Below, in pieces: positions 4,508 to 20,025 of a stretch of 49,381 bases of DNA. The notes below the pieces were generated by a model. The model saw nothing but the letters and a program-made list of their open reading frames with translations. It was not told where the DNA came from and searched no databases. Source of the stretch: Alphaproteobacteria bacterium (lineage in GTDB: Bacteria; Pseudomonadota; Alphaproteobacteria; GCA-2731375); assembly GCA_047518225.1 (NCBI GenBank), contig JAKZRK010000046.1, forward strand, positions 1 to 49,381, given 5' to 3'. The number at the start of each line of letters is the position of its first letter. Position 1 is the first letter of the stretch. The translations under genes were made by a program, and so were the position numbers.

Positions 4508-5374
4508 CTATTGCAAGTGGGCCTGGAACCAATCCAAGGCGGCCTGGCGTGATGCCGCCAGTTGCAATGTATAGGGATCGTAGTGACGGCCTGCCAGGGT
4601 CACCAGTTTCTTGGGCTCGCCGGCCAGCTCAAATGCCTCGCGCTGCCAGGCCACGGGGGTCTGGGTGTCCTGATCGGCGACGATCATCAATAACGGCGTG
4701 GGCGCGATACGGCTGATCAATGAAATCGGCTCGTAACCGCGCAACAGATCCAGGCTCCGCAAGGTGATCTCGTTGCCGTAGGTACCGTCCTTGTCCACCG
4801 CCTCGGCCCACTCCGCCGTTTCGGAACCGGGGATGGCGGCAGGGGTAACGCCGGGCGGCTCGCCCCGGGCGCGGCCGTCACGGTCTGCGGCCAGGCGTTC
4901 GAGGAAACGTTGTCGGCTTGCCTGCGGTATCCAGGCCTCGAAGGTGCGCTGGCCCGAGACCAGGGGCACCTGGGAAACGGCGCATTTTACCCGGCCGTCC
5001 AGGGCCGCGACCACCAAGGCATGGCCGCCCGAATAGGATGTGCCCCACAGCCCGATCCGGCCGGGATCGACAAAAGCGAGGTTACGGCCATATGAGATCG
5101 CGGCCCGCATATCCTCGACCTGCTGCCAGGGGTCGGTTTCATGGCGCGGCCAGCCCGACGAAGCGCCATAGTTGCGGTGGTCATAGACCAGTACGGCAAA
5201 GCCGGCGGCGGCGAAGGCAGCGGCATAATCGTCCAACCCCATGGCCATGAGGGCGGAGAAACCGTGGCTCATGACGATCAGGGGGTAGCGATTACCGTCA
5301 GCCCCGGACGGCCCATAAAGCCAGCCGGCCAGCTTTTCGCCATTGGCCTCGAAAACATTATCGCGCCGTTCCAT
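4508..5374 (-). CDS. Alpha/beta hydrolase (CocE/NonD/AidA-like)
   Basis: SHGFS, YDHRNYGAS, nucleophile elbow GTSYSGG, acid Asp region ADQD and His in GRHY. Confidence 0.85.
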   Translation of the reverse strand: MERRDNVFEANGEKLAGWLYGPSGADGNRYPLIVMSHGFSALMAMGLDDYAAAFAAAGFAVLVYDHRNYGASSGWPRHETDPWQQVEDMRAAISYGRNLAFVDPGRIGLWGTSYSGGHALVVAALDGRVKCAVSQVPLVSGQRTFEAWIPQASRQRFLERLAADRDGRARGEPPGVTPAAIPGSETAEWAEAVDKDGTYGNEITLRSLDLLRGYEPISLISRIAPTPLLMIVADQDTQTPVAWQREAFELAGEPKKLVTLAGRHYDPYTLQLAASRQAALDWFQAHLQ

Positions 5375-5381
5375 CACGAAA

Positions 5382-6455
5382 CTAAGCCGCCTGCACCGTT
5401 TTCAAGATTGGCGCCCAATCTTCCAACATCTCCTCCTGGCCTGGATTGTACTGCACGGCAATCTGGCTATAGCCGGCATTTTTCAGGCTGGTCAGCCGCG
5501 CCACCAATTCATCGCGGCGGCCGGTGAAAGTCTTCTCGCGGATCAGATCACCGGTAACCAGGGGCGCCTCGTCATCGCGCACGAACATCATGTGGCCCCG
5601 GTGCAGGGACAGATAACGGGCATCGCCGGGTTGATAGGATTGATAGAGCCGATGATAGCGGTCCACCAATTCGCGCTGCCAGCCGGGCAGATTGATCTTG
5701 TCGCCACCTTTCGCCTCTGCCTCCACGATCGCATGCATGAAGATCGCCGCGCCCGGACCGGCCTGGGCCATGGCGCGCGGGCTGTCATAGGGTTCGCCAT
5801 CGGCCAGGACGCAGCCCAGGGACAACATGGTGGTGTAAAGATCTTGCGGCGGATTGCCCGCCTCGTCCCAGGCGGCCTGCATCCGTTGCAGATCGCGTAA
5901 ACCCGTGCGCTCGGTGAAGACGATATCGATCCAGGCCGCTTTCAACTTGGCCGTCAGGGCCCGGCTGCGCGGACCGAACGCCGAGATATGCAGGGGCACC
6001 GGATCGTCCAGATTGATCAGGCCGAATTCAGGGTTTAGGAAATTGGCCTTTGGCCGTTTGCCCTCGAACGGCACTTCGACGATTTCGCCCGACAGCATGC
6101 CATAGACGGCATGGATATAGTCCTCCATATCGTCCAATTTCATGGCGCCGTAGCCCATGGTGCGCCGGCCGGTAAATCCGGTGCCCACCCCGAAATCGAC
6201 ACGGCCGGGCGCCATGGCGTTCAGGGTGGCGAACGCATTGGCCGTCACCGGCGCGATGCGGTTGGAGGGGATCAGAACGCCCGTGGCCAGGCGGATTTTC
6301 CTGGTCCGCATGGCCGCCGCCGCCATGGCCACAAAAACGTCGCCGCATAATTGCTGGGTGTCATAGAACCAAGCATGGGTAAATCCCAATTCCTCGGCCC
6401 GTTCGACAATTTTCCAACTATCCGCGCCCGACGGCACGCCAAGACCGATATCCAT
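5382..6455 (-). CDS. LLM-class flavin-dependent oxidoreductase
   Basis: AEELGFTHAW, TRKIRLATGV and APGRVDFGVGTG luciferase-like motifs. Confidence 0.85.
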   Translation of the reverse strand: MDIGLGVPSGADSWKIVERAEELGFTHAWFYDTQQLCGDVFVAMAAAAMRTRKIRLATGVLIPSNRIAPVTANAFATLNAMAPGRVDFGVGTGFTGRRTMGYGAMKLDDMEDYIHAVYGMLSGEIVEVPFEGKRPKANFLNPEFGLINLDDPVPLHISAFGPRSRALTAKLKAAWIDIVFTERTGLRDLQRMQAAWDEAGNPPQDLYTTMLSLGCVLADGEPYDSPRAMAQAGPGAAIFMHAIVEAEAKGGDKINLPGWQRELVDRYHRLYQSYQPGDARYLSLHRGHMMFVRDDEAPLVTGDLIREKTFTGRRDELVARLTSLKNAGYSQIAVQYNPGQEEMLEDWAPILKTVQAA

Positions 6456-6663: not shown

Positions 6664-7788
6664 TCACGATGCCGCCGCCAGGACTTCATCCGCCGCGCGG
6701 TAAGCCAAATTCAAATCCCGCGCCACCGCTTCATAGGTTACCTTGCCGCCATGGACGTTCAAGCCGGCCTTCAAATGAGGGTCGTCACGCATGGCCTGGG
6801 CAAAGCCCTTGTCCGCCAGGGCCAGCATGAACGGCAGGGTGGCATTATTCAGGGCGAAAGTGGAGGTGCGGGCGACCGCGCCCGGCATATTCGCGACGCA
6901 ATAATGCACCACCTCATGGACACGGTAGGTGGGATCGTCATGGGTGGTCGCATGCGCGGTTTCGATACAGCCGCCCTGATCGATCGCCACATCGACGATG
7001 ACGGAGCCCCGGCGCATGCCCTTGACCATATCCTCGCTGACCAGGCGGGGCGCGGCGGCGCCGGGCACCAACACGGCACCGATCACCAGGTCGGAATTCA
7101 TCACGTGCTTTTCGATGGCGTCCACGGTGGAATAGATCGTGTTGAGGGAGGAGGAAAATTGATCGTCGAGCTCTTTTAGCCGGCGTAAATTCAGATCAAT
7201 TACCGTTACCCGCGCCTCGCAGCCGATGGCAATGCGCGCGGCGTTGGCGCCGACCGCACCGCCGCCCAGGATCAGCACATCCGCCGCCGGCACCCCGGCC
7301 ACGCCGCCCAACAAAGCACCGCGCCCACCCTGGTTCATTTCCAGGCAGTGCGCCCCGGCCTGAATGGACATCCGCCCCGCCACCTCGCTCATGGGCGCCA
7401 ACAACGGCAGGCCGCCGAATGGGTCCGTCACGGTTTCATAAGCGACGGCGGTGGCGCCGGATGCCAGCAGTCCCTTGGTCTGATCCGGGTCGGGCGCCAG
7501 GTGAAGATAGGTGAAGATGATCTGGCCGTCACGCAGCATGGCGATCTCGCCCGGCTGCGGCTCCTTCACCTTGACGATCATATCGGCGCGGGCGAAGACC
7601 TCCGCCGGGTCGGCCACCACATCCGCCCCGGCCGTGGCATAGTCCTCGTCCAGCAGGCCAATGGCCGCACCGGCGCCGCTTTCGACCACGGCGCCATGGC
7701 CGTGATACACCGCTTCCCGCACGGAGGTGGGGGTCAGCCCGACGCGGTATTCGTGGTTCTTCACCTCTTTTGGAACACCGATCAGCAT
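6664..7788 (-). CDS. ald: Alanine dehydrogenase
   Basis: MLIGVPKEVKNHEYRVG, KVKEP, LLAPMSEVAGR, DVAIDQGG and HYCVANMPGAV motifs. Confidence 0.95.
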   Translation of the reverse strand: MLIGVPKEVKNHEYRVGLTPTSVREAVYHGHGAVVESGAGAAIGLLDEDYATAGADVVADPAEVFARADMIVKVKEPQPGEIAMLRDGQIIFTYLHLAPDPDQTKGLLASGATAVAYETVTDPFGGLPLLAPMSEVAGRMSIQAGAHCLEMNQGGRGALLGGVAGVPAADVLILGGGAVGANAARIAIGCEARVTVIDLNLRRLKELDDQFSSSLNTIYSTVDAIEKHVMNSDLVIGAVLVPGAAAPRLVSEDMVKGMRRGSVIVDVAIDQGGCIETAHATTHDDPTYRVHEVVHYCVANMPGAVARTSTFALNNATLPFMLALADKGFAQAMRDDPHLKAGLNVHGGKVTYEAVARDLNLAYRAADEVLAAAS

Positions 7789-9200: not shown

Positions 9201-10235
9201 TCATAAACCCCGCGTCAGATCCATCACTTGTTCCAGGTGGGCGATACGCTCGGACAGGCTTTGTTTGTTGTCCAGGCGCAGGGTCAGGGCGTTGATGCCC
9301 GCGTCGCGGTAGGTTTGCAAGCGCTGGCGCACCATTTCCGCCGTGCCGATGGCGCCGAACTGGGTGATCATCTCGTCGGGCACCCGGTCAGCCGCTTCCT
9401 GGCGTTTGCCGTCCAGCCACAGGCGTTGAATGGCCAGGGCGTCGTCGGTAAAGCCGGACCGCTTGAAGGCATCGTTATAGAAATTCGTCGTGGCTGAACC
9501 CATGGCCCCCATGGAAAAGGCCACGCCCGGCCGGCGGGCATCAATCAATTCCTCTACATTCTCGCCGACGGCTATGTTGCACGAGGCATGCAGGTCGATA
9601 TCGGCCAGGCTGCGCCCCGCGGCTTGCGCGCCTTTGCGCAGATAATCCAAATGGGCGTCCGCATGGTCGGGCGAGAACGAGGTGCCCAGCCAGCCGTCGG
9701 CCGCGGCGCCGGTATATTCCAACGACTTTGGCCCCAGAGTGGCGAGATAAATCGGAATTTCGCGGGCCGGATGATCCAGGCGCAGCGCCTTGCCCTCGCC
9801 TCCCGGTCGGGGCAGGGTGTGGTAACGGCCCTCGTACTGCAGTTTTTCGCCGCGAAAGGCCATGCGCAGGATATCGACGGTTTCCTTCAGGCGGGTCAAA
9901 GGCGCCTGATAGGCAACGCCATGCAAACCTTCCACCACCTGGGGCCCACTGACGCCCAGGCCCAGGATGAAGCGGCCATTGGTCAGATTATCCAGGGACA
10001 AAGCGGTCATCGCCGTCATCGAAGGCGTCCGGGCGCTGATCTGCATGATGCCGGTGCCCAGCTTGATCTTGTCGGTCAAGGCGCCGAGGTAGGCCAGGGA
10101 GGTCACCGCATCACCGCCCCAGGCCTCGGCCGACCAGGCATGGTGCACGCCCAGCTTTTCGGCTTGTTGGATCAACTCCACCAAGCCGAGGACGTCGACC
10201 CGGTCATAAGCGCCAATGGAAATCGATACCTTCAT
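9201..10235 (-). CDS. LLM-class oxidoreductase (resembles F420-associated LLM subfamilies)
   Basis: WSAEAWGGDA, IKLGTGIMQISARTP and GRFILGLGVSGPQVVEGLHG motifs. Confidence 0.85.
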   Translation of the reverse strand: MKVSISIGAYDRVDVLGLVELIQQAEKLGVHHAWSAEAWGGDAVTSLAYLGALTDKIKLGTGIMQISARTPSMTAMTALSLDNLTNGRFILGLGVSGPQVVEGLHGVAYQAPLTRLKETVDILRMAFRGEKLQYEGRYHTLPRPGGEGKALRLDHPAREIPIYLATLGPKSLEYTGAAADGWLGTSFSPDHADAHLDYLRKGAQAAGRSLADIDLHASCNIAVGENVEELIDARRPGVAFSMGAMGSATTNFYNDAFKRSGFTDDALAIQRLWLDGKRQEAADRVPDEMITQFGAIGTAEMVRQRLQTYRDAGINALTLRLDNKQSLSERIAHLEQVMDLTRGL

Positions 10236-10238
10236 TTT

Positions 10239-11768
10239 TCAATCCTTCTTGTGCTGCCGGTCAGGCGACGGGGCGGCGAATTCAGGGCCTTCCGGGCAGA
10301 CCCGCACGCCGGGCCGCAGGTTTTTGTAGGGCAGAGTTTCGGGACGGTCAATACTGGCGCCCGGCGCCTCCACGACCAGAATTTGTTCGGCAATTTCGGT
10401 AAAATCAGCCCGGAGGTGCACGCTGCTTTTCAGGCCGAGGATTTTCTGCCGCGCGGGCTCGCAACCCAGATGGCGGAAGATTTCCTGGTCGGCGGCCTGC
10501 ATGCGGTTGGTGGCAACCACCACGGACACGCCGCCGATGCGCAATAGCGCCATGGCGCCCAAATTGGGCGTGATGCCGCCATAAAAGGGTCCGGTACAGG
10601 TGAATTGTCCATTGCCCAGGGCGGCCACCGTAAAGCGGCCCTTGAAAGGCGGGTCGCCGGCGGTAAACACTTTTCCACCCAAATTCACGTCGATCTCGGC
10701 CCCCTGCCCGGCCGCATGGGCCTGGGCGGCCACCTCGCCATCGACCAGAATGCCCAACACGGCGCCATCGGCCCCCTGTTCCACCAGGGCATGCAGCAGT
10801 CCCGTGGTATCCGACGTGGCGCCGGCGCCGCAATTGTCCTGCACATCGGCCAGGACATACGGTTTGTGGGCGTTGGAGGCGATGGCCTCGGCCACCGCCG
10901 CTCCCGGCGTCAAACGGGCGATCTGGAAAGCGGCTTCCCGGGCCAGAATGGCCTCGTAAAGGCCATCGGCGGCGCGGTCGGCGGTTTCCTCATCGTCACC
11001 ATAGGCCACCACCACGGGCCCACAATCCCAGATATCGGCCGGTGGGAAGCCCGGCGTGAAGGAGATCGAACGCACGCCCTCTTCGCCCTCCAGCGCCGCC
11101 AGCCTGGCATAGGCGCCCAAGGCCGGTTCGACCATGGTGCATTGCCCGGTCAACGGCATCAGAAACGGCAACGCACGATGGGTCTTGGCCGGCAGCCGGC
11201 CCGGATCGGCCAGCAGGGTATCCAGGAAATGCGCGGCCCGGCGGCCCGTATCGGCCATGTCCACATGGGGATAGGTGCGATAGGCGATCAGGCCATCGCA
11301 ATTGTCAACCATCGCCCGGGTGGTGTTGCTGTGCAAATCCAGGCTGACTACCAGGGGGAAGTCCGGGCCCAACCGATCGCGCACACGGATCAGCAATTCG
11401 CCTTCACCATCTTCAAGATGTTCGCAGACCATGGCGCCATGCAGGTCGAGATAGACCGCATCGAAGGGCATGGCGTCGGCCAAACCCGTCAACAACAAAT
11501 CCGCGAAGGTCTCGAAAGCATGCTCCGTGACATGGGCCGAAGGAACGTCCGAACACCAGGCAATGGGAGCCAATTCGTGGCCCATGGCCTGGGCCGCGTC
11601 GATAAAGCCGGCGGTTGAAATATTTTTGCCCGGCATGACCGTCAGAATATCCGCCCCGAGGGTCAGCCCGGGAAAACTTTCCGTGCGGAGGAAATCATCC
11701 CAGGTCGCCTTTTGCGGCGCAAATGTGTTGGTCTCGTGTAAAAATCCCCCATGGGCAATCCGGCTCAT
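10239..11768 (-). CDS. M81-family metallopeptidase (MlrC-like)
   Basis: HETNTF, LDLHGAM, LDLHSN, YRTYPHVD, DNCGAG and KSSVH motifs. ATG 11768 has a GGAG SD. Confidence 0.9.
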   Translation of the reverse strand: MSRIAHGGFLHETNTFAPQKATWDDFLRTESFPGLTLGADILTVMPGKNISTAGFIDAAQAMGHELAPIAWCSDVPSAHVTEHAFETFADLLLTGLADAMPFDAVYLDLHGAMVCEHLEDGEGELLIRVRDRLGPDFPLVVSLDLHSNTTRAMVDNCDGLIAYRTYPHVDMADTGRRAAHFLDTLLADPGRLPAKTHRALPFLMPLTGQCTMVEPALGAYARLAALEGEEGVRSISFTPGFPPADIWDCGPVVVAYGDDEETADRAADGLYEAILAREAAFQIARLTPGAAVAEAIASNAHKPYVLADVQDNCGAGATSDTTGLLHALVEQGADGAVLGILVDGEVAAQAHAAGQGAEIDVNLGGKVFTAGDPPFKGRFTVAALGNGQFTCTGPFYGGITPNLGAMALLRIGGVSVVVATNRMQAADQEIFRHLGCEPARQKILGLKSSVHLRADFTEIAEQILVVEAPGASIDRPETLPYKNLRPGVRVCPEGPEFAAPSPDRQHKKD

Positions 11769-11967
11769 GTGCACTCCCTTGTTATTCTTCTTCCCGAAAC
11801 CAGTTGCGCCGCGCCGCCGTCATGGTCGGCACGAAGTTCGTGGCAAAAACAAAAAATACGCCTTTGCCGGTCGTCTAATGCGCCCAATTTTTTGGGCTGC
11901 TGTTGGGAAGCTAACCCATTACCCACTCTCCGTCATCGGTTCATCTAGAGCGGTTCCGCCGCCAGTC

Positions 11968-13926: not shown

Positions 13927-14412
13927 TTAGTCTTTCTCTTCAATACAGTCATGCAGCAGGTTCAGCGCGGCCCTGGCGAAGACCCACATATTGGCCTCCC
14001 GGTCGTTGTCCCCCGTCTCCAGGGTGATGACGCGCTCCACGGGTCCGCTGACGGCGAGGCAGGTATGGCCGGCATCGTCGCCATAGCGGTTTCCCGTGGG
14101 GCCCGAGGCGCCGGTCTCGGCCAGCCCCCAGGTCGCATCCAGCTTCTCCCGCATGGTGCGGGCGCATAACAGGGCATAGGGCTCCGAGGACGAGCGCATG
14201 CCTTGCATGGCCTCGGGCGGGATGCCCAGCAAATGCTCACGGGCGGGAAGGGTGTAGATGACACCGCCGCCCAAAAAATATGCCGAGGCGCCGGGCACAC
14301 ACAGCAGAGAGGCCGAAACCAAGCCCCCGGCGGACGATTCAGAGACGGCGACGGTTTCGCCGCGGTCTTTCAATATGGCGCCCAATTCGGCCGCCATGTT
14401 CAGATTGCTCAT
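13927..14412 (-). CDS. CinA C-terminal/PncC-family protein
   Basis: TVAVSESSAGG, PGASAYF and ETGASGPTG motifs of the CinA/PncC fold, with a divergent active site. Confidence 0.8.
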   Translation of the reverse strand: MSNLNMAAELGAILKDRGETVAVSESSAGGLVSASLLCVPGASAYFLGGGVIYTLPAREHLLGIPPEAMQGMRSSSEPYALLCARTMREKLDATWGLAETGASGPTGNRYGDDAGHTCLAVSGPVERVITLETGDNDREANMWVFARAALNLLHDCIEEKD

Positions 14413-14482
14413 CGGTATCCTCCCCCTTTTACCTTATTGTGCCGACAAATCCGTCGAAGCGCCAGATCGGTCAGGAAACTGC

Positions 14483-15340
14483 GTGCAGAATAACCCCCTC
14501 AAGGGCATCGTCTTGATGAATGTGGCCATGTTTTTACTGGCCGCCATGGATGGCATTACCAAGACCCTTGCCCCGGACTATTCGGTGCCGCAGATCCTCT
14601 CCGTGCGGTTCCTGATTTTCTGCCTGTTTGCCCTGGCCATCGCCCGGCCGAAAAGCCTCCGGGCGGCCTTTCGCTCCCATCACCCCTATCTGCAAATCGC
14701 CCGCAGCCTGATCATCACCATCGAGGTCGGCGTCTTCATCATCGCCTTCCGCTATCTGCCCCTGGCCGATGCCCACGCCATCGCCGGCATCGCGCCCCTG
14801 TTGGTCACCGCCCTGGCGGTGCCTGTCCTGGGCGAAAAGGTCGGCCTGCGCCGGTGGAGCGCCATTGCCATCGGTTTCATCGGCTTGCTTGTCATCGTCC
14901 GCCCCGGCCTTGGCGTCTTCAACCCTGCCGCCCTGCTCCCCCTGGGCGGTGCCTGCCTGTGGGCGGTCTATCAAATCCTGATGCGAAAAGTGGCCGAGGA
15001 CAGCGCCGCCACTTCCCTTCTGTACATGGCGGTGATCGGCGCCGTGGTGATGACCGCCCTGGCGCCGTTCTTCTGGCGCCCGCCGGACGCCACCGGCTGG
15101 CTGTTACTGGTCGCCCTGGGCCTAGTCGGCAGCCTGGGCCACTACATCTTGATCAAGGCCTTCCAGGCCGCCCCCGCCTCCACCCTGCAACCCTTCCACT
15201 ACGTCGTGCTGCTCTGGGCCACGGCGGTCGGCTACGTCATATTCGGCGACCTGCCCGATACATGGATCATCCTGGGCGCGGCCATCATCGCCGCCAGCGG
15301 ACTGTACGCCTTCTATCGGGAACGGGTACGGGCCAGCTAA
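14483..15340 (+). CDS. DMT/EamA-family transporter
   Basis: About 10 hydrophobic segments; LGEKVGLRRW, IVRPG and GYVIFGDLPD motifs. GTG start at 14483 behind AGGA. Confidence 0.88.
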   Translation: MQNNPLKGIVLMNVAMFLLAAMDGITKTLAPDYSVPQILSVRFLIFCLFALAIARPKSLRAAFRSHHPYLQIARSLIITIEVGVFIIAFRYLPLADAHAIAGIAPLLVTALAVPVLGEKVGLRRWSAIAIGFIGLLVIVRPGLGVFNPAALLPLGGACLWAVYQILMRKVAEDSAATSLLYMAVIGAVVMTALAPFFWRPPDATGWLLLVALGLVGSLGHYILIKAFQAAPASTLQPFHYVVLLWATAVGYVIFGDLPDTWIILGAAIIAASGLYAFYRERVRAS

Positions 15341-15416
15341 AACCGGCTCAGCGCGTCCTGCAATTTCGCCCGTGTTTGTTCCGCCTCCACCAGACGTTCG
15401 CGCTGGATTTCGGCCA
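15337..15416 (-). repeat. Displaced duplicate of the valS 3' end (direct repeat of 16602-16681)
   Basis: 71/80 identity. Encodes [25 protein letters not shown] versus [25 protein letters not shown] in valS. Confidence 0.93.
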
Positions 15417-15437
15417 AGGGCTAGAACCCTGCCATTT

Positions 15438-15516
15438 TGGGTATTCATGGGTAAATTTATGGAAGAAATGCCATAAACGTTGCATTAATGGGTATTTTTG
15501 GGTATATTCTTGGGTA
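15438..15516 (+). promoter_or_regulatory. Array of five TGGGTA direct repeats upstream of the Fic gene
   Basis: Copies start at 15438, 15448, 15489, 15499 and 15511 in AT-rich DNA. The last overlaps the ATG. Confidence 0.55.
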
Positions 15517-16568
15517 TGACGCTCAACCTCGACAGTTTATTTATCACCCCGGAAATCCTTTCGCTCATTGCGGAACTGGATGAGTTAAAGGGGGCATGGC
15601 GGGCGTTGGGAAGACTGGCGCCGGAACGCCTATCGGCCTTGCGCCGGGTTGCCACAATTGAGAGCATCGGCTCTTCGACCCGCATTGAAGGCGGCAGGCT
15701 CTCCGACCGCGAGGTCGAACACTTGCTGGCCAATCTTGAAATCCAAAAATTCGAAACCCGCGACGAACAAGAGGTGGCCGGTTACGCGGAGACCATGGAA
15801 GTGGTGTTCGCCCATTATGACGCCATCGAGATCACGGAAAACCATATCAAGCAACTGCACCGCGACCTGCTGAAACATAGCAGCAAAGATGAAAGCCATC
15901 GCGGCAACTACAAAACCAATCCCAACCATGTCAGCGCGTTCGATGCGGACGGCAAGGAAATCGGCGTCGTCTTCAAAACCGCCACGCCCTTCGAAACGCC
16001 CCGCTTGACGAACGACCTGGTCGAATGGACGCGAAGCGCCCTCAACGAGAACCGGCTGCATCCCCTGCTCGTGATCGCGACCTTTATCGTCGTCTTCCTG
16101 GAAATCCACCCGTTTCAGGACGGCAACGGACGTCTGTCCCGCATTCTAACGACGCTATTGCTGCTGCGCGGCGGCTACGCCTATGTCCCCTATGCCTCGC
16201 TTGAAAGCGTTGTTGAACAAAGCAAGGAAAGTTACTACATCGCCCTCAGACGAACCCAGGGCACAATCCGCGGCGGCGCGCCCGAATGGCGACCTTGGAT
16301 CATCTATTTCCTACGCGCCCTGCAACGGCAAAAGAGGCACCTTGAAAAGAAGATCGCACGGGAACGCATGGTCATTGATGCCCTGCCCGGACTATCGGTT
16401 CAGATTCTCGAACTCGCCAAGGAACATGGCCGCCTCGGCATCGGCCAAATCGTCAAACTCACAAGCGCCAACCGCAATACGGTCAACAAACACCTCAAGG
16501 ACCTGGTTGTTGCGAACCACTTGGCCCAACACGGCGTTGGCAGAGGAACGTGGTATGGACAGTCTTAG
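15516..16568 (+). CDS. Fic-family protein (AMPylase) with a C-terminal winged HTH
   Basis: Canonical HPFQDGNGRLSR motif, N-terminal STRIEG autoinhibitory motif (class II Fic) and a C-terminal HTH ending GVGRGTWY. ATG at 15516. Confidence 0.93.
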   Translation: MTLNLDSLFITPEILSLIAELDELKGAWRALGRLAPERLSALRRVATIESIGSSTRIEGGRLSDREVEHLLANLEIQKFETRDEQEVAGYAETMEVVFAHYDAIEITENHIKQLHRDLLKHSSKDESHRGNYKTNPNHVSAFDADGKEIGVVFKTATPFETPRLTNDLVEWTRSALNENRLHPLLVIATFIVVFLEIHPFQDGNGRLSRILTTLLLLRGGYAYVPYASLESVVEQSKESYYIALRRTQGTIRGGAPEWRPWIIYFLRALQRQKRHLEKKIARERMVIDALPGLSVQILELAKEHGRLGIGQIVKLTSANRNTVNKHLKDLVVANHLAQHGVGRGTWYGQS

Positions 16569-16601
16569 TTCGCGCAACAAGGGTCATGTGTTGACGCCCC
16601 C

Positions 16602-19262
16602 CTAAAACCTCGACAGCGCGTCCTGCAATTTCGCCCTTGTCCGTTCCGCTTCCACCAGACGTTCGCGCTGGATTTCGACCACCTCCCGAGGGGCCTTGTC
16701 GGTGAAGCCCTTGTTGGCTAGTTTTTTCGTCATGCCGCCGATCTGGCCGTCCAGTTTATCCACCGCCTTGGCCAGGCGGAGGCGTTCCTGATCCATATCG
16801 ATGACATCGGCCAGGGGCAGGACAAGCGTGGCTTCATCGACCACGGTTTGCACGCTGCCGGGAGGTAAATCGCCGCTCTGTTCGCCGGTTTCGCTGATCC
16901 GCGCCAATGTCGTGATCAATTCCCGTTGCCGTTCGAGCCGCGCCAGGGTCTCCGCACTGGCGCCGCTCAACAACAGGGGGATATGGGCCCCGGGGGGTAC
17001 GTTCATTTCCGAACGGACGGAGCGGATTTCACTGACCAGGCGGATCACCCAATCAATTTCCGCCGCCGCCCGCTCATTAACCAGCTCATCGCCGTAATCC
17101 GGCCAGGGCGCGGTTACCAACATGGTATCCCGCCCACCGGCCGCAACGGACCTGGCCCAAAGCTCCTCCGTCACGAACGGCATGAAGGGATGCAGCAGGC
17201 GCAGAATGGCGTCCAGGGCCCAGGCCGCGGTGGCCCGGGTCTCGTCCTTGGCCCGGCCATCGGGGCCCTGTAACACGGGTTTGGAGAATTCCACATACCA
17301 GTCGCAAAAGGTGCCCCAGACAAAATGATAGGCATCGTTCGCCGCCTCGTTAAAGCGGTAGGCATCCAGGCCGGAGCTGATGCGGTCCTGGGCCATTTTA
17401 AGCTGCCCGATCAGCCATTGGTTGACCGTGCCCGCGACCGTCCCCGGATCGAACGCCGGGTCAAGAACACAGCCGTTGATCTCGCAAAAGCGGGCCGCGT
17501 TCCAAAGCTTGGTGGCGAAATTGCGGCTGCCCTCGATACGCTGTTCCGACAATTTGACGTCGCGCCCCTGGGCCGCCTGGCCGGCCAGGGTGAAACGCAG
17601 GGCATCGGCGCCATATTTCTCGATCAATTCCAGGGGGTCGATAATGTTACCCTTGGATTTGGACATTTTCTGGCCCTTGGCATCGCGTACCAGGGCATGG
17701 ATATAGACCGTGTCGAAGGGCACTTCGCCGGCGAAATGCAGCCCGAACATCATCATCCGCGCGACCCAGAAAAAGATGATGTCAAAGCCGGTGACCAATA
17801 ACGCGGTGGGGTAATAGCGCGCCAACTCCGGCGTTTGTTCCGGCCAGCCCAGGGTGGTCAGGGGCCACAGACCGGAAGAAAACCAGGTATCCAGCACGTC
17901 TTCGTCCCGGCGCAGTTCCCTCTTTTCGCCGTAATGGGCCAGGGCCGCGGCTGCCACCGCCTCGTCGGTCATTTCGACAAAAATTTCCCCATCCGGGCCG
18001 TACCAAGCGGGGATCTGATGGCCCCACCAAAGCTGCCGCGAGATGCACCAGGGCTGGATGTTCTCCATCCAGTCGTAATAGGTTTTCTCCCACATTTTCG
18101 GGACGAATTTGGTCCGCCCCGAACGCACCGCCGCGATCGCCGGCTGGGCCAGGGTTTCGGCGTCCACGTACCATTGCTCGGTCAACCACGGCTCGATCGG
18201 GACATTGCCGCGGTCGCCATAGGGCACCGTGTGGGTATGCTCGTCAATTTGGGCGATCAGCCCCAGGGCCGCCAAATCCGCCAGCACCTTTTCCCGGGCG
18301 GCGAAACGGTCCAGGCCGCGATAGGCCGCGGGCGCGTTGTCGTTGATGCGGGCCTCTTCATCCAGCACATTGATCATTTCCAGGCCGTGCCGGCGGCCAA
18401 CCTCGAAATCATTGAAATCATGGGCCGGCGTCATCTTTACCGCGCCCGAGCCCTGTTCCGGATCGGCATAGTCATCGGCCACGATGATCAGACGCCGGCC
18501 CACCAGGGGCAGGATGGCGTATGTGCCCACCAGATCCTTGTAACGGCCATCGTCGGGGTGCACCGCGATGGCGCTGTCGCCCAGCATGGTTTCAGGCCGG
18601 GTGGTGGCGACGGTGATGAATTTTCCATTCCCATCTTCCAGTGGATAATTGATATGCCACAGATGACCCGCCACTTCCGTCGGCTGCACCTCCAGATCGG
18701 AGATGGCGGTCTTCAGCTTCGGATCCCAATTGACCAGGCGCTTGTCCTTGTAAATTAGGCCTTGTTTGTAGAGATCGACAAAGACCTTGCGCACCGCCCT
18801 GGACAGGCCCTCGTCCATGGTAAAGCGTTCCCGTTGCCAATCGCACGAGGCGCCCAGGCGGCGCAGTTGCCCGGTGATGGTGCCGCCCGATTGATCCTTC
18901 CATTCCCAGACCCGTTCGATAAATTTTTCCCGGCCCAGATCCTGACGCGTCAGCCCCTCTTCCTCCAGCATGCGTTCGACGACCATTTGTGTGGCGATGC
19001 CAGCGTGATCCATGCCCGGTTGCCACAGCACATCGCGCCCGCGCATGCGTTGCAGGCGGATCATGATGTCCTGCAAGGTATTGTTCAGGGCATGGCCCAT
19101 GTGCAGGCTGCCGGTCACGTTCGGCGGCGGGATGACGATGGCATAGGGCTCTGCGTTGCCGGCCTTGCCGGCGGGCGTCCCAGCGGAAAGTGCGCCCGAA
19201 TCTTCCCATTGGCGGTATAGGCGTCCCTCGACTTCCGAGGGAATAAAGGTCTTGTCCAGCAT
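16602..19262 (-). CDS. valS: Valine--tRNA ligase
   Basis: [14 protein letters not shown] (HIGH), [28 protein letters not shown] and KMSKS motifs. ATG at 19262. Confidence 0.98.
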
Positions 19263-19395
19263 TGCCGAACCCTTTTTTAAAACAAGCCCCGCATCAACCA
19301 CCCTTGGGATGCCGACACTGTCTTGCAGGTAAATATTTGATGGAAATAATCTTCAGGCCGGCGGTTGGCAGACCCATCAAAGTCAGCCGCTGTAT

Positions 19396-20025
19396 TCAGC
19401 CGTTTTCCGCGCCCCCCACCAGCTTGACGATTTCCTTTTCCACAAGGCGTTCTACCAGCGTCGGCAGATTTTCGTCCAGCCATTCTTTCAACATGGGACG
19501 CAACAGATCCTTGACCAATTCTTCCAGGGTCTGATGGGCATATCCCATGGGCATGCCACGGGCCGCCGAGACGGCGCCGGTTAATCCGGAAAATGTTTCG
19601 GTCGTGACATCGGCGGCGTGGTCCGATAGCAACGTGTGCAGATCCGCCGCCGGTGCCGCGGCCGGCTCAGGTGTCGGGGCCGGCGCGGGTTCCGCAGCCT
19701 TGATACTGTCAAAATCATCGACGGGAACCGGGTCTTCCTCATCCTCGGCCGCGTCTTCCATGGAGGGATCGAGTTCCGGTTCCAAATCGGGGACATCGTC
19801 GATGTCCGGGGCGACCTCGGTCAGTTCAAGGACGTCTTCGGCATCCTCGGCGGGCTCGGCATCCTCGGCGGGTTCGGCATCCTCGGCAGCCTCTTCATCG
19901 CCTTCCTCTTCCGCGTCGTCGCCACCCTCTTCTTCGTCGTCAGAGATGATCCGGCGAATGGATGCCAGAATCTCTTCCATCGTCGGTTCCCGATCGTCGT
20001 CTTCGTCTTCCGTGGCATCAGTCAT
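19396..20025 (-). CDS. popZ: Pole-organizing protein PopZ (DUF2497)
   Basis: N-terminal EPTMEEILASIRRII helix, acidic/Pro-rich linker and C-terminal LRPMLKEWLDENLP..VE.LV..EI. Sits between tolC and valS as usual. Confidence 0.9.
   Translation of the reverse strand: MTDATEDEDDDREPTMEEILASIRRIISDDEEEGGDDAEEEGDEEAAEDAEPAEDAEPAEDAEDVLELTEVAPDIDDVPDLEPELDPSMEDAAEDEEDPVPVDDFDSIKAAEPAPAPTPEPAAAPAADLHTLLSDHAADVTTETFSGLTGAVSAARGMPMGYAHQTLEELVKDLLRPMLKEWLDENLPTLVERLVEKEIVKLVGGAENG
19838..19887. repeat. 18-bp in-frame tandem repeat (about 2.8 copies) in the popZ linker
   Basis: tcggcatcctcggcgggc / tcggcatcctcggcgggt / tcggcatcctcggc, encoding AEDAEP repeats. Confidence 0.8.

Follow-up and report, generated by a model that had tools for sequence, protein, structure and literature searches.

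The window analysed here is the whole of C46, a 49-kb contig (49,381 nucleotides) of G000, an alphaproteobacterial metagenome-assembled genome (MAG) of 4.23 Mb in 355 contigs. In it, the last 80 nt of valS, the essential gene for valyl-tRNA synthetase, occur twice, and a short cassette with a single Fic-domain gene lies between the two copies. We give about an even chance to the explanation that this 1,265-bp unit came in through a single reciprocal crossover at the 80-nt end of valS, between valS ends that were related but had diverged, as an insertion-duplication of the Campbell type or by an equivalent exchange in two homologous steps. An essential tRNA-synthetase gene tolerates such an insertion only because the cargo brings a substitute gene end with it.

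A duplicated valS end around a fic gene

A repeat search of the window yielded a direct repeat of 80 nt at 15337-15416 and 16602-16681, with a spacing of 1265 and identity at 71 of 80 positions (89%). The copy at 16602-16681 is the working 3' end of valS (16602-19301, minus strand), an intact gene of 899 aa with Pfam matches to tRNA-synt_1, Anticodon_1 and Val_tRNA-synt_C, the last of which extends to residue 898 of 899. The copy at 15337-15416, also on the minus strand, is an orphan valS 3' end of 25 codons and TAG. Codon-by-codon comparison shows that the repeat consists of the last 25 sense codons plus the TAG of valS and that similarity between the copies terminates precisely at this stop codon. 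Six of the nine mismatched nucleotides are synonymous and sit in four codons (GAA/GAG, AGG/CGG twice, and a TCG/AGC serine switch), while the three non-synonymous ones make up a CGG/CAA difference (R/Q, 2 nt) and a GTC/GCC difference (V/A, 1 nt) at the inner edge of the repeat. The longest exact block spans 27 nt (15386-15412 / 16651-16677), and a second one of 23 nt lies farther out. The sole match to the orphan copy elsewhere in the genome is the valS end, with no third copy, and a chance resemblance is excluded. An in-frame stop lies three codons upstream of the orphan copy, whose own TAG (complement of 15337-15339) overlaps the stop codon, TAA at 15338-15340, of a convergent open reading frame (ORF) for an EamA/DMT-family transporter (hereafter DMT).

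The cassette between the copies is made up of a 33-nt spacer from the fic stop to the valS stop (16569-16601), the fic gene (15516-16568, plus strand, 350 aa; PF02661), which is the only credible gene between the copies, and a 99-nt AT-rich region upstream of it (15417-15515, plus strand, GC ~0.45). A preliminary description of the window, made from its letters without database searches, had reported the 80-bp repeat, its 9 mismatches with 6 of them synonymous, and the orphan TAG overlapping the DMT stop, and all of these were recovered here.

Independent contigs covering both junctions

Runs of four studies, sponge metagenomes among them, contain the stretch. Logan k=31 contigs of three runs (X5, X7 and X8), from three further studies that differ from the likely source study of the MAG, cover 14900-15861 and 15834-17100 with 0-2 differences. 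Those over 14900-15861 carry the DMT gene, the orphan, the promoter and the 5' part of fic, without any difference at the junction between the orphan and the region upstream of fic, and those over 15834-17100 carry the 3' part of fic, the valS end and valS, including the fic-valS junction. As k=31 exceeds 27 nt, a false join at the 27-nt exact block is impossible, and since both diagnostic junctions are present in independent contigs, the locus arrangement is not an assembly artefact. The contigs of these three runs stop at 15834-15863 and none bridges both repeats; the pairing of the two locus halves rests on the MAG contig together with valS-DMT synteny in 11 relatives. No cassette-skipping joint or circle junction was present among the contigs of four runs, a material that cannot show rare forms, and the contigs of a further run (X1) leave a gap at 15344-15417, which proves nothing. 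A second, diverged fic of the same communities shares ~30 identical nt with the window at 15825-15863, splitting the k=31 contigs; the G000 bin has one fic of this family only.

The valS-DMT interval in same-genus genomes

The valS gene was found in 17 of 20 same-genus genomes, with 77-87% identity over the last 300 aa, and 14 of these could be extended downstream; the other three (G006, G013, G014) have <520 nt after valS. Three of the extended genomes (G019, G007, G016) end before DMT, leaving 11 relatives that reach it. One of them, G003, has the empty site that the preliminary description had predicted, with valS and DMT overlapping by 27 nt. Across 12 genomes the valS-DMT interval measures 0, 471, 761, 1261, 1492, 1558, 1968, 2042, 2119, 3349, 3401 and 6797 nt, the 10 relatives besides G003 spanning 471 to 6797 nt, and its gene content is different in each genome. 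According to Pfam, the cargo in relatives includes MsrA with an MFS transporter, CcdA/CcdB (G002), a methyltransferase, a class-V aminotransferase, D-glutamate cyclase, a short-chain dehydrogenase, 2-oxoacid:ferredoxin oxidoreductase subunits, a PAS histidine kinase and an AMP-binding enzyme. The valS-DMT junction is hypervariable within the genus. The suggestion that valS is a hotspot for defence or toxin cargo did not hold, as cargo of this type occupies only 2 of 11 filled intervals (Fic in G000 and CcdAB in G002) and the remainder is metabolic or regulatory.

The orphan end and DMT of G000 are collinear with the valS end and DMT of G003, with 94 of 120 positions identical after the stop and one 8-nt indel. 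The sequence after the expressed valS end does not align with G003, and the 33-nt spacer has no similarity to the post-valS sequence of that genome. The orphan therefore lies at the ancestral valS/DMT junction, as the preliminary description had it. A second, orphan or stacked valS end, which had been expected in relatives, was found in none of the 14 same-genus genomes with post-valS sequence, and the valS gene-end duplication is peculiar to G000 among the genus genomes examined. A scan of metagenome contigs with the ValS C-terminus gave a best match of 56% identity and yielded no close relative or empty site. As a separate observation, the last 1-6 DMT codons differ in every genus genome (loci L045-L058), as if rearrangements replaced the DMT tail and not the valS end.

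Divergence of the two gene ends

When 8 substitutions are placed randomly in 25 codons, the probability of seeing no stop and no more than one amino-acid change is 0.0003, and 0.0004 in a codon-event version of this selection test. It is therefore unlikely that a duplicated target decayed in place, and the earlier claim that the two ends diverged under protein-level selection finds support. Judged by the pattern of substitutions, each end took shape as part of a functional valS in a lineage of its own before the two were joined. Identity between the copies (71/80) is higher than that of either copy with any of the 14 relatives (67/78 at best), and the recombination partner was therefore a near relative; the two also share a lineage-specific 11-residue string.

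The proposal that the orphan is the native end and the expressed end is foreign had been drawn from codon usage, and the relatives speak against this argument. The serine codon is TCN in 14/14 relatives, as in the expressed end, leaving the AGC of the orphan as the odd one; the last arginine is AGG or AGA in 7/14, and the other arginine is AGG in the closest relative, G020. AGG makes up 5 of the 65 arginine codons in valS, two of the five being in the expressed end, and it was rejected as a mark of foreign origin since relatives have AGG or AGA at the same places. The predicted grouping, in which the orphan would fall with relatives and the expressed end apart from them, was not obtained either: 12/14 relatives are more similar to the expressed end than to the orphan (67/78 vs 62/78 for G020), and 2/14 are more similar, by one base, to the orphan. 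At the R/Q codon 12/14 relatives share the Q of the orphan, and each G000 copy mixes genus-typical and unusual states.

The Fic cargo and its upstream repeats

The cargo gene matches the Fic family of Pfam at 4.8e-17 and the SoFic model of PADLOC at 3.9e-44 over residues 19-345 of 350. Class II Fic proteins have an N-terminal inhibitory helix with the motif (S/T)xxxE(G/N), and the protein encoded in the window has a corresponding STRIEG at residue 54, aligned with the equivalent helix of 8uqu_A, in agreement with class II. This structure is the nearest solved relative in the PDB (1.8e-35), followed by SoFic structures at 1.6e-12. The Fic active-site motif, HxFx(D/E)GN(G/K)RxxR (PMC2686095), is present as HPFQDGNGRLSR at residue 198. 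The NCBIfam SoFic equivalog model NF046030 scores 71.7 bits against a cut-off of 550, and by these comparisons the protein is classed as a distant SoFic family member and not as an equivalog. The gene has a GC content of 0.57 and 0.70 at third codon positions, vs 0.61 and 0.76 for valS. At least 561 fic relatives are present in species-representative genomes; the best 80 of these are 66-78% identical and span Alpha-, Beta- and Gammaproteobacteria, Verrucomicrobiota, Acidobacteriota and others, a patchy taxon spread that fits a horizontally moving gene.

The region upstream of fic contains TGGGTA direct repeats in two clusters, one at 15438 and 15448 with a degenerate unit at 15460, the other at 15489, 15499 and 15511, with a spacing of 10-12 nt and with the last repeat overlapping the fic ATG. 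Nearly all of the 80 homologous fic genes likewise have two such clusters upstream, in which units of the form (T/A)TGG(G/A)T(A/G) recur at about one helical turn, and after them the ATG. We regard these repeats as a putative operator for the C-terminal DNA-binding domain of Fic itself, and fic as a putative autoregulated single-gene module for abortive-infection-type defence or for toxicity. To our knowledge, no TGGGTA-repeat operator has been reported, and the conserved array provides a testable candidate operator for a widespread Fic family.

Some further observations concern the same region. Within the TGGGTA repeats, run X1 has a deletion of 12 nt at 15498. A TTGCAT...TATATT pair, 7 nt 5' of the fic ATG, hints at a leaderless transcript. 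In five homologous loci (L104, L114, L117, L130, L132) a conserved inverted repeat, a TATTCGCCGCA..TGCGGCGAATA-like hairpin, is located ~60-110 nt 5' of fic and precedes the fic operator; its carriers form a beta-/gammaproteobacterial subgroup from different genera.

Duplicated gene ends elsewhere

For 74 fic loci the two flanks were compared with each other, with 300 mismatched pairs as a control, and flank repeats exceeded all 300 controls at four loci: the window, L107, L136 and L076. L107, from a Kordiimonadales MAG, carries a 70%-identical fic cassette after ftsK, bracketed by a 43-nt duplication (1 mismatch) of the last 14 ftsK codons (5833-5877 / 7021-7065) that ends at the stop. Its far joint is a 9-nt microhomology within a truncated fic 3' end, to which the orphan ftsK end is thereby joined in frame. 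L107 is a clean independent parallel to the valS case. The flank repeat of L076 is 85 nt long with two ORFs between the copies, and those of L102/L113 are 23-38 nt, at or below the control maximum. L136, considered as a second analogue for its 74-nt repeat (5832-5905 / 7173-7246), was rejected on the ground that this repeat belongs to a dispersed element of ~185 nt, of which several copies occur in related genomes and three in G066. Around ftsK, close relatives of L107 carry other small cargo after the gene. In G048 (L227) a SnoaL-like ORF is followed, at ~620-740 nt from the ftsK stop, by a decayed orphan ftsK end with 79% identity over 62 nt, and then by AbrB/PIN-like ORFs of the VapBC type (assigned by eye); the close relatives L220, L221 and L223 have small toxin-antitoxin-like ORFs after ftsK.

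Whole-genome self-comparison of G000 gave 29 local direct-repeat pairs, three of which, besides valS, have the same layout. On C133, a 111-nt repeat ending at the stop duplicates the 3' end of a gene for a 246-aa SDR-family protein (9674-9784 / 11542-11651), with another SDR gene as cargo. On C86, the 3' end of a gene for a 498-aa flavoprotein is duplicated over 102 nt with 84% identity (10430-10531 / 11723-11822), around a MaoC-type dehydratase gene and an unknown ORF, and on C295 the 44-nt 3' end of a 285-aa ORF (2914-2957 / 4602-4645) brackets an adenylate cyclase-domain gene. The cargo between the copies amounts to 1.2-1.9 kb in these three cases and is unrelated. The four G000 gene-end repeats have no common att core, that is, no shared word of >=10 nt, and this speaks against a single sequence-specific recombinase. 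As an empty-site comparison for C133, the 1.5 kb after the orthologous SDR gene was inspected in 19 relatives; it contained neither the Rieske gene nor the gene for the 309-aa SDR, a result from which no conclusion follows. Further local repeats in G000 are located on C178, C265, C278, C207 and C293.

How the cassette may have entered valS

In the explanation that we favour, incoming DNA with a valS end and fic, in the simplest case circular, would undergo one recombination with the valS end already present, the crossover falling within the identical block of 27 or of 23 nt. The unit would consist of the valS 3' end of a near relative, the 33-nt spacer, the SoFic-type fic and ~100 nt of operator and promoter. 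The outcome would be a full-length valS with a hybrid end, while the other hybrid end would remain as an untranslated orphan still abutting DMT, with a single illegitimate joint at 15416/15417. Homology would end at the stop because donor and recipient share the gene only, the region after valS being variable across the genus. Insertion-duplication thus accounts for the duplicated end, its edge at the stop codon, the signature of selection, the single illegitimate joint and the lack of a recombinase or a common core. That host homologous recombination made the join, and not a trans-acting site-specific recombinase, that the intermediate was circular, and which of the ends came in are points that we infer. 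The core of the preliminary reading holds: cargo is accommodated in an essential gene, without an integrase, by means of a surrogate gene end.

Several points weigh against insertion-duplication. Neither a circle nor a donor genome turned up, nor a read from an empty site, and none of the best 80 of the at least 561 fic loci is near valS, so that no donor arrangement is documented. A search for valS fragments beside fic homologues was likewise negative for 11 loci from relatives and for these 80, its single match (L063, 25% identity) being to another class I synthetase. An 89%-identical stretch of 80 nt with a perfect block of 27 nt serves RecA poorly as a substrate, insertion-duplication gives no account of how a valS end and fic were first brought together, and 80 nt with a best valS relative at 87% aa identity are too little to decide the direction of transfer. 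The duplications on C133, C86 and C295 are known from the MAG assembly alone and not from independent reads. Finally, the genome has two uncharacterised tyrosine recombinases of non-Xer size at the edges of other contigs, and these could act in trans.

The searches for mobility genes bear on the last point. Neither the 1.27-kb cassette nor the rest of its 49-kb contig contains an integrase, an excisionase or a pseudogene; the genome has 4 PF00589 matches, all of them on contigs other than C46, in keeping with the earlier statement that the cassette has no recombinase. No tyrosine or serine recombinase lies beside the repeat, with only fic between the copies, serine recombinases not having been searched genome-wide. 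Among the 25 longest of 42 inverted-repeat pairs, none lies at the cassette ends (15417, 16601). A transposon or insertion sequence does not match the locus, which has no transposase ORF and a duplication of 80 nt. A direct repeat of the target 3' end does flank the insert, as in gene-end-restoring islands, and the content between valS and DMT varies in relatives, as in a hotspot flanked by core genes. None of the 14 same-genus genomes has an integrase island downstream of valS that could be the partner of a cis-mobilizable remnant.

These results make it improbable, though by no means far-fetched, that the cassette is the remnant or satellite of a site-specific integrative element, in which a tyrosine integrase would have used an attB in the valS 3' end and an attP with a valS-end surrogate, the integrase module being deleted later or the 1.27-kb unit being moved in trans. 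Such an element would produce a direct repeat of the target 3' end with similarity ending at the stop and an exact block as a possible core, the two PF00589 genes of non-Xer size at contig edges could have served it, and elements that keep attL and attR without integration genes are described as CIMEs (PMC5704250). Against it stand the lack of integrase, excisionase or pseudogene on the contig, the 14 relatives with neither an integrase island nor a second valS end after valS, the homologous fic cassettes at many unrelated sites with 0/80 of the best loci at valS, and the four gene-end repeats of G000 with no core of >=10 nt in common. We consider it quite unlikely that 80 nt of native valS were instead doubled in place, by a staggered break or by replication template switching, and then diverged. 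Near-identical repeats elsewhere (1 mismatch in 43 nt at L107, 1 in 44 at C295, and 86 identical nt at C133), the microhomology at the L107 joint, which is typical of illegitimate joining, and the mixture of genus-typical and unusual states in each G000 copy would suit this origin. However, a drifting orphan should gain mostly non-synonymous changes, stops or indels, whereas 4 of the 5 changed codons inside the repeat are synonymous and include the three-base TCG/AGC switch (P ~0.0003), and an outer edge exactly at the stop would be a coincidence, yet L107 and C133 show such an edge again. The preliminary description had named an assembly chimera of two strains among the outcomes that could overturn its reading; one strain would have valS abutting DMT and the other valS followed by fic. 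The 355-contig state of the MAG and the break of the k=31 contigs in fic, at ~30 nt shared with another community fic, lend this some colour, but with both junctions inside contigs from three further studies, a k of 31 above the 27-nt block, and valS and DMT as neighbours in 11 relatives, it is hardly credible.

Insertion-duplication can also be stated as a wider proposal, which we regard as possible but rather doubtful: small promoter-bearing cargo genes, such as the SoFic gene at this locus and toxin-antitoxin-like or metabolic genes at others, may enter the 3' ends of core genes, essential ones like valS and ftsK among them, by integrase-independent insertion-duplication, the incoming DNA supplying the last codons and the native end being orphaned. 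If this is true, the conserved ends of universal genes would be portable homology that lets single genes hop between related genomes, and four such scars in one sponge-associated genome would mean that the route is common there.

Relation to known systems

Integrative elements that restore the end of the gene they enter include e14 at icd, islands at guaA or tRNA genes, and streptococcal integrative and conjugative or mobilizable elements (ICE/IME) at the 3' ends of core genes; the substitution of a gene end is thus a device already known from integrase-bearing islands. The valS locus resembles them in having an insert flanked by a repeat of the target 3' end, a look-alike end that keeps the gene intact, and an orphan end left behind. 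Unlike them, it has no integrase or excisionase and consists of a 1.27-kb unit with one cargo gene, no related element is found at valS in relatives, and related fic cassettes are located at unrelated sites. At valS the substitute gene end comes with one defence-type gene and without a recombinase.

Cis-mobilizable elements (CIMEs) are described as att-flanked remnants without integration genes (PMC5704250). The locus shares with them the flanking repeats and the lack of recombination genes; however, CIMEs are decay products that occur together with a cognate ICE or IME at the same site or are mobilised by it, and none was found here or in the 14 relatives. In minimal mobile elements, or core-gene-flanked hotspots of horizontal gene transfer, as defined in a quotation in PMC3787668, different whole-gene cargo is found between two conserved genes without mobility genes, as between valS and DMT in each relative, and homologous recombination has been proposed as the means of spread. 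Those elements use a double crossover and have no duplicated gene end, in contrast to the present locus, where the homology on one flank is only 80 nt and is duplicated. The single-gene anti-phage defence SoFic and class II Fic AMP-transferases have also been described (PMC12249575; bioRxiv 10.64898/2026.07.09.737422). The Fic protein of the window, known from sequence alone, is like these in its end-to-end match to the PADLOC model, its Fic and inhibitory-helix motifs and its similar length, and differs from SoFic equivalogs in scoring far below their cut-off.

If host recombination alone suffices, this would be a simple route for defence, toxin and metabolic genes into core-gene junctions, and some hotspots of horizontal gene transfer that have no mobile-element genes would be explained. 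Orphan gene ends mark recent insertions in MAGs, and the recurrence at ftsK in another order and at three other G000 genes adds weight to a follow-up.

Other features of the locus

The locus comprises genes for an acyl-CoA dehydrogenase, CinA, DMT, valS, a DUF2497 protein and an outer-membrane efflux protein (Pfam), and the genes within 5 kb of the cassette are housekeeping genes. No Rfam match was obtained in 14800-17200, and a scan of 15200-16800 for consensus promoters and terminators gave zero matches. The DMT gene is listed as an ORF at 14258-15340 on the plus strand, convergent with valS, with a Pfam EamA match at 2e-21. Its orthologues beside valS in the 11 same-genus genomes are 76-87% identical, several of them aligning only from residue 43-117 on, and the true DMT start is probably downstream of 14258. 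The ORF overlaps the CinA gene by 155 nt (14258-14412). On the other side of valS, three tandem 18-nt units (TCGGCATCCTCGGCGGGC-like) are located within the DUF2497 ORF at 19838-19891.

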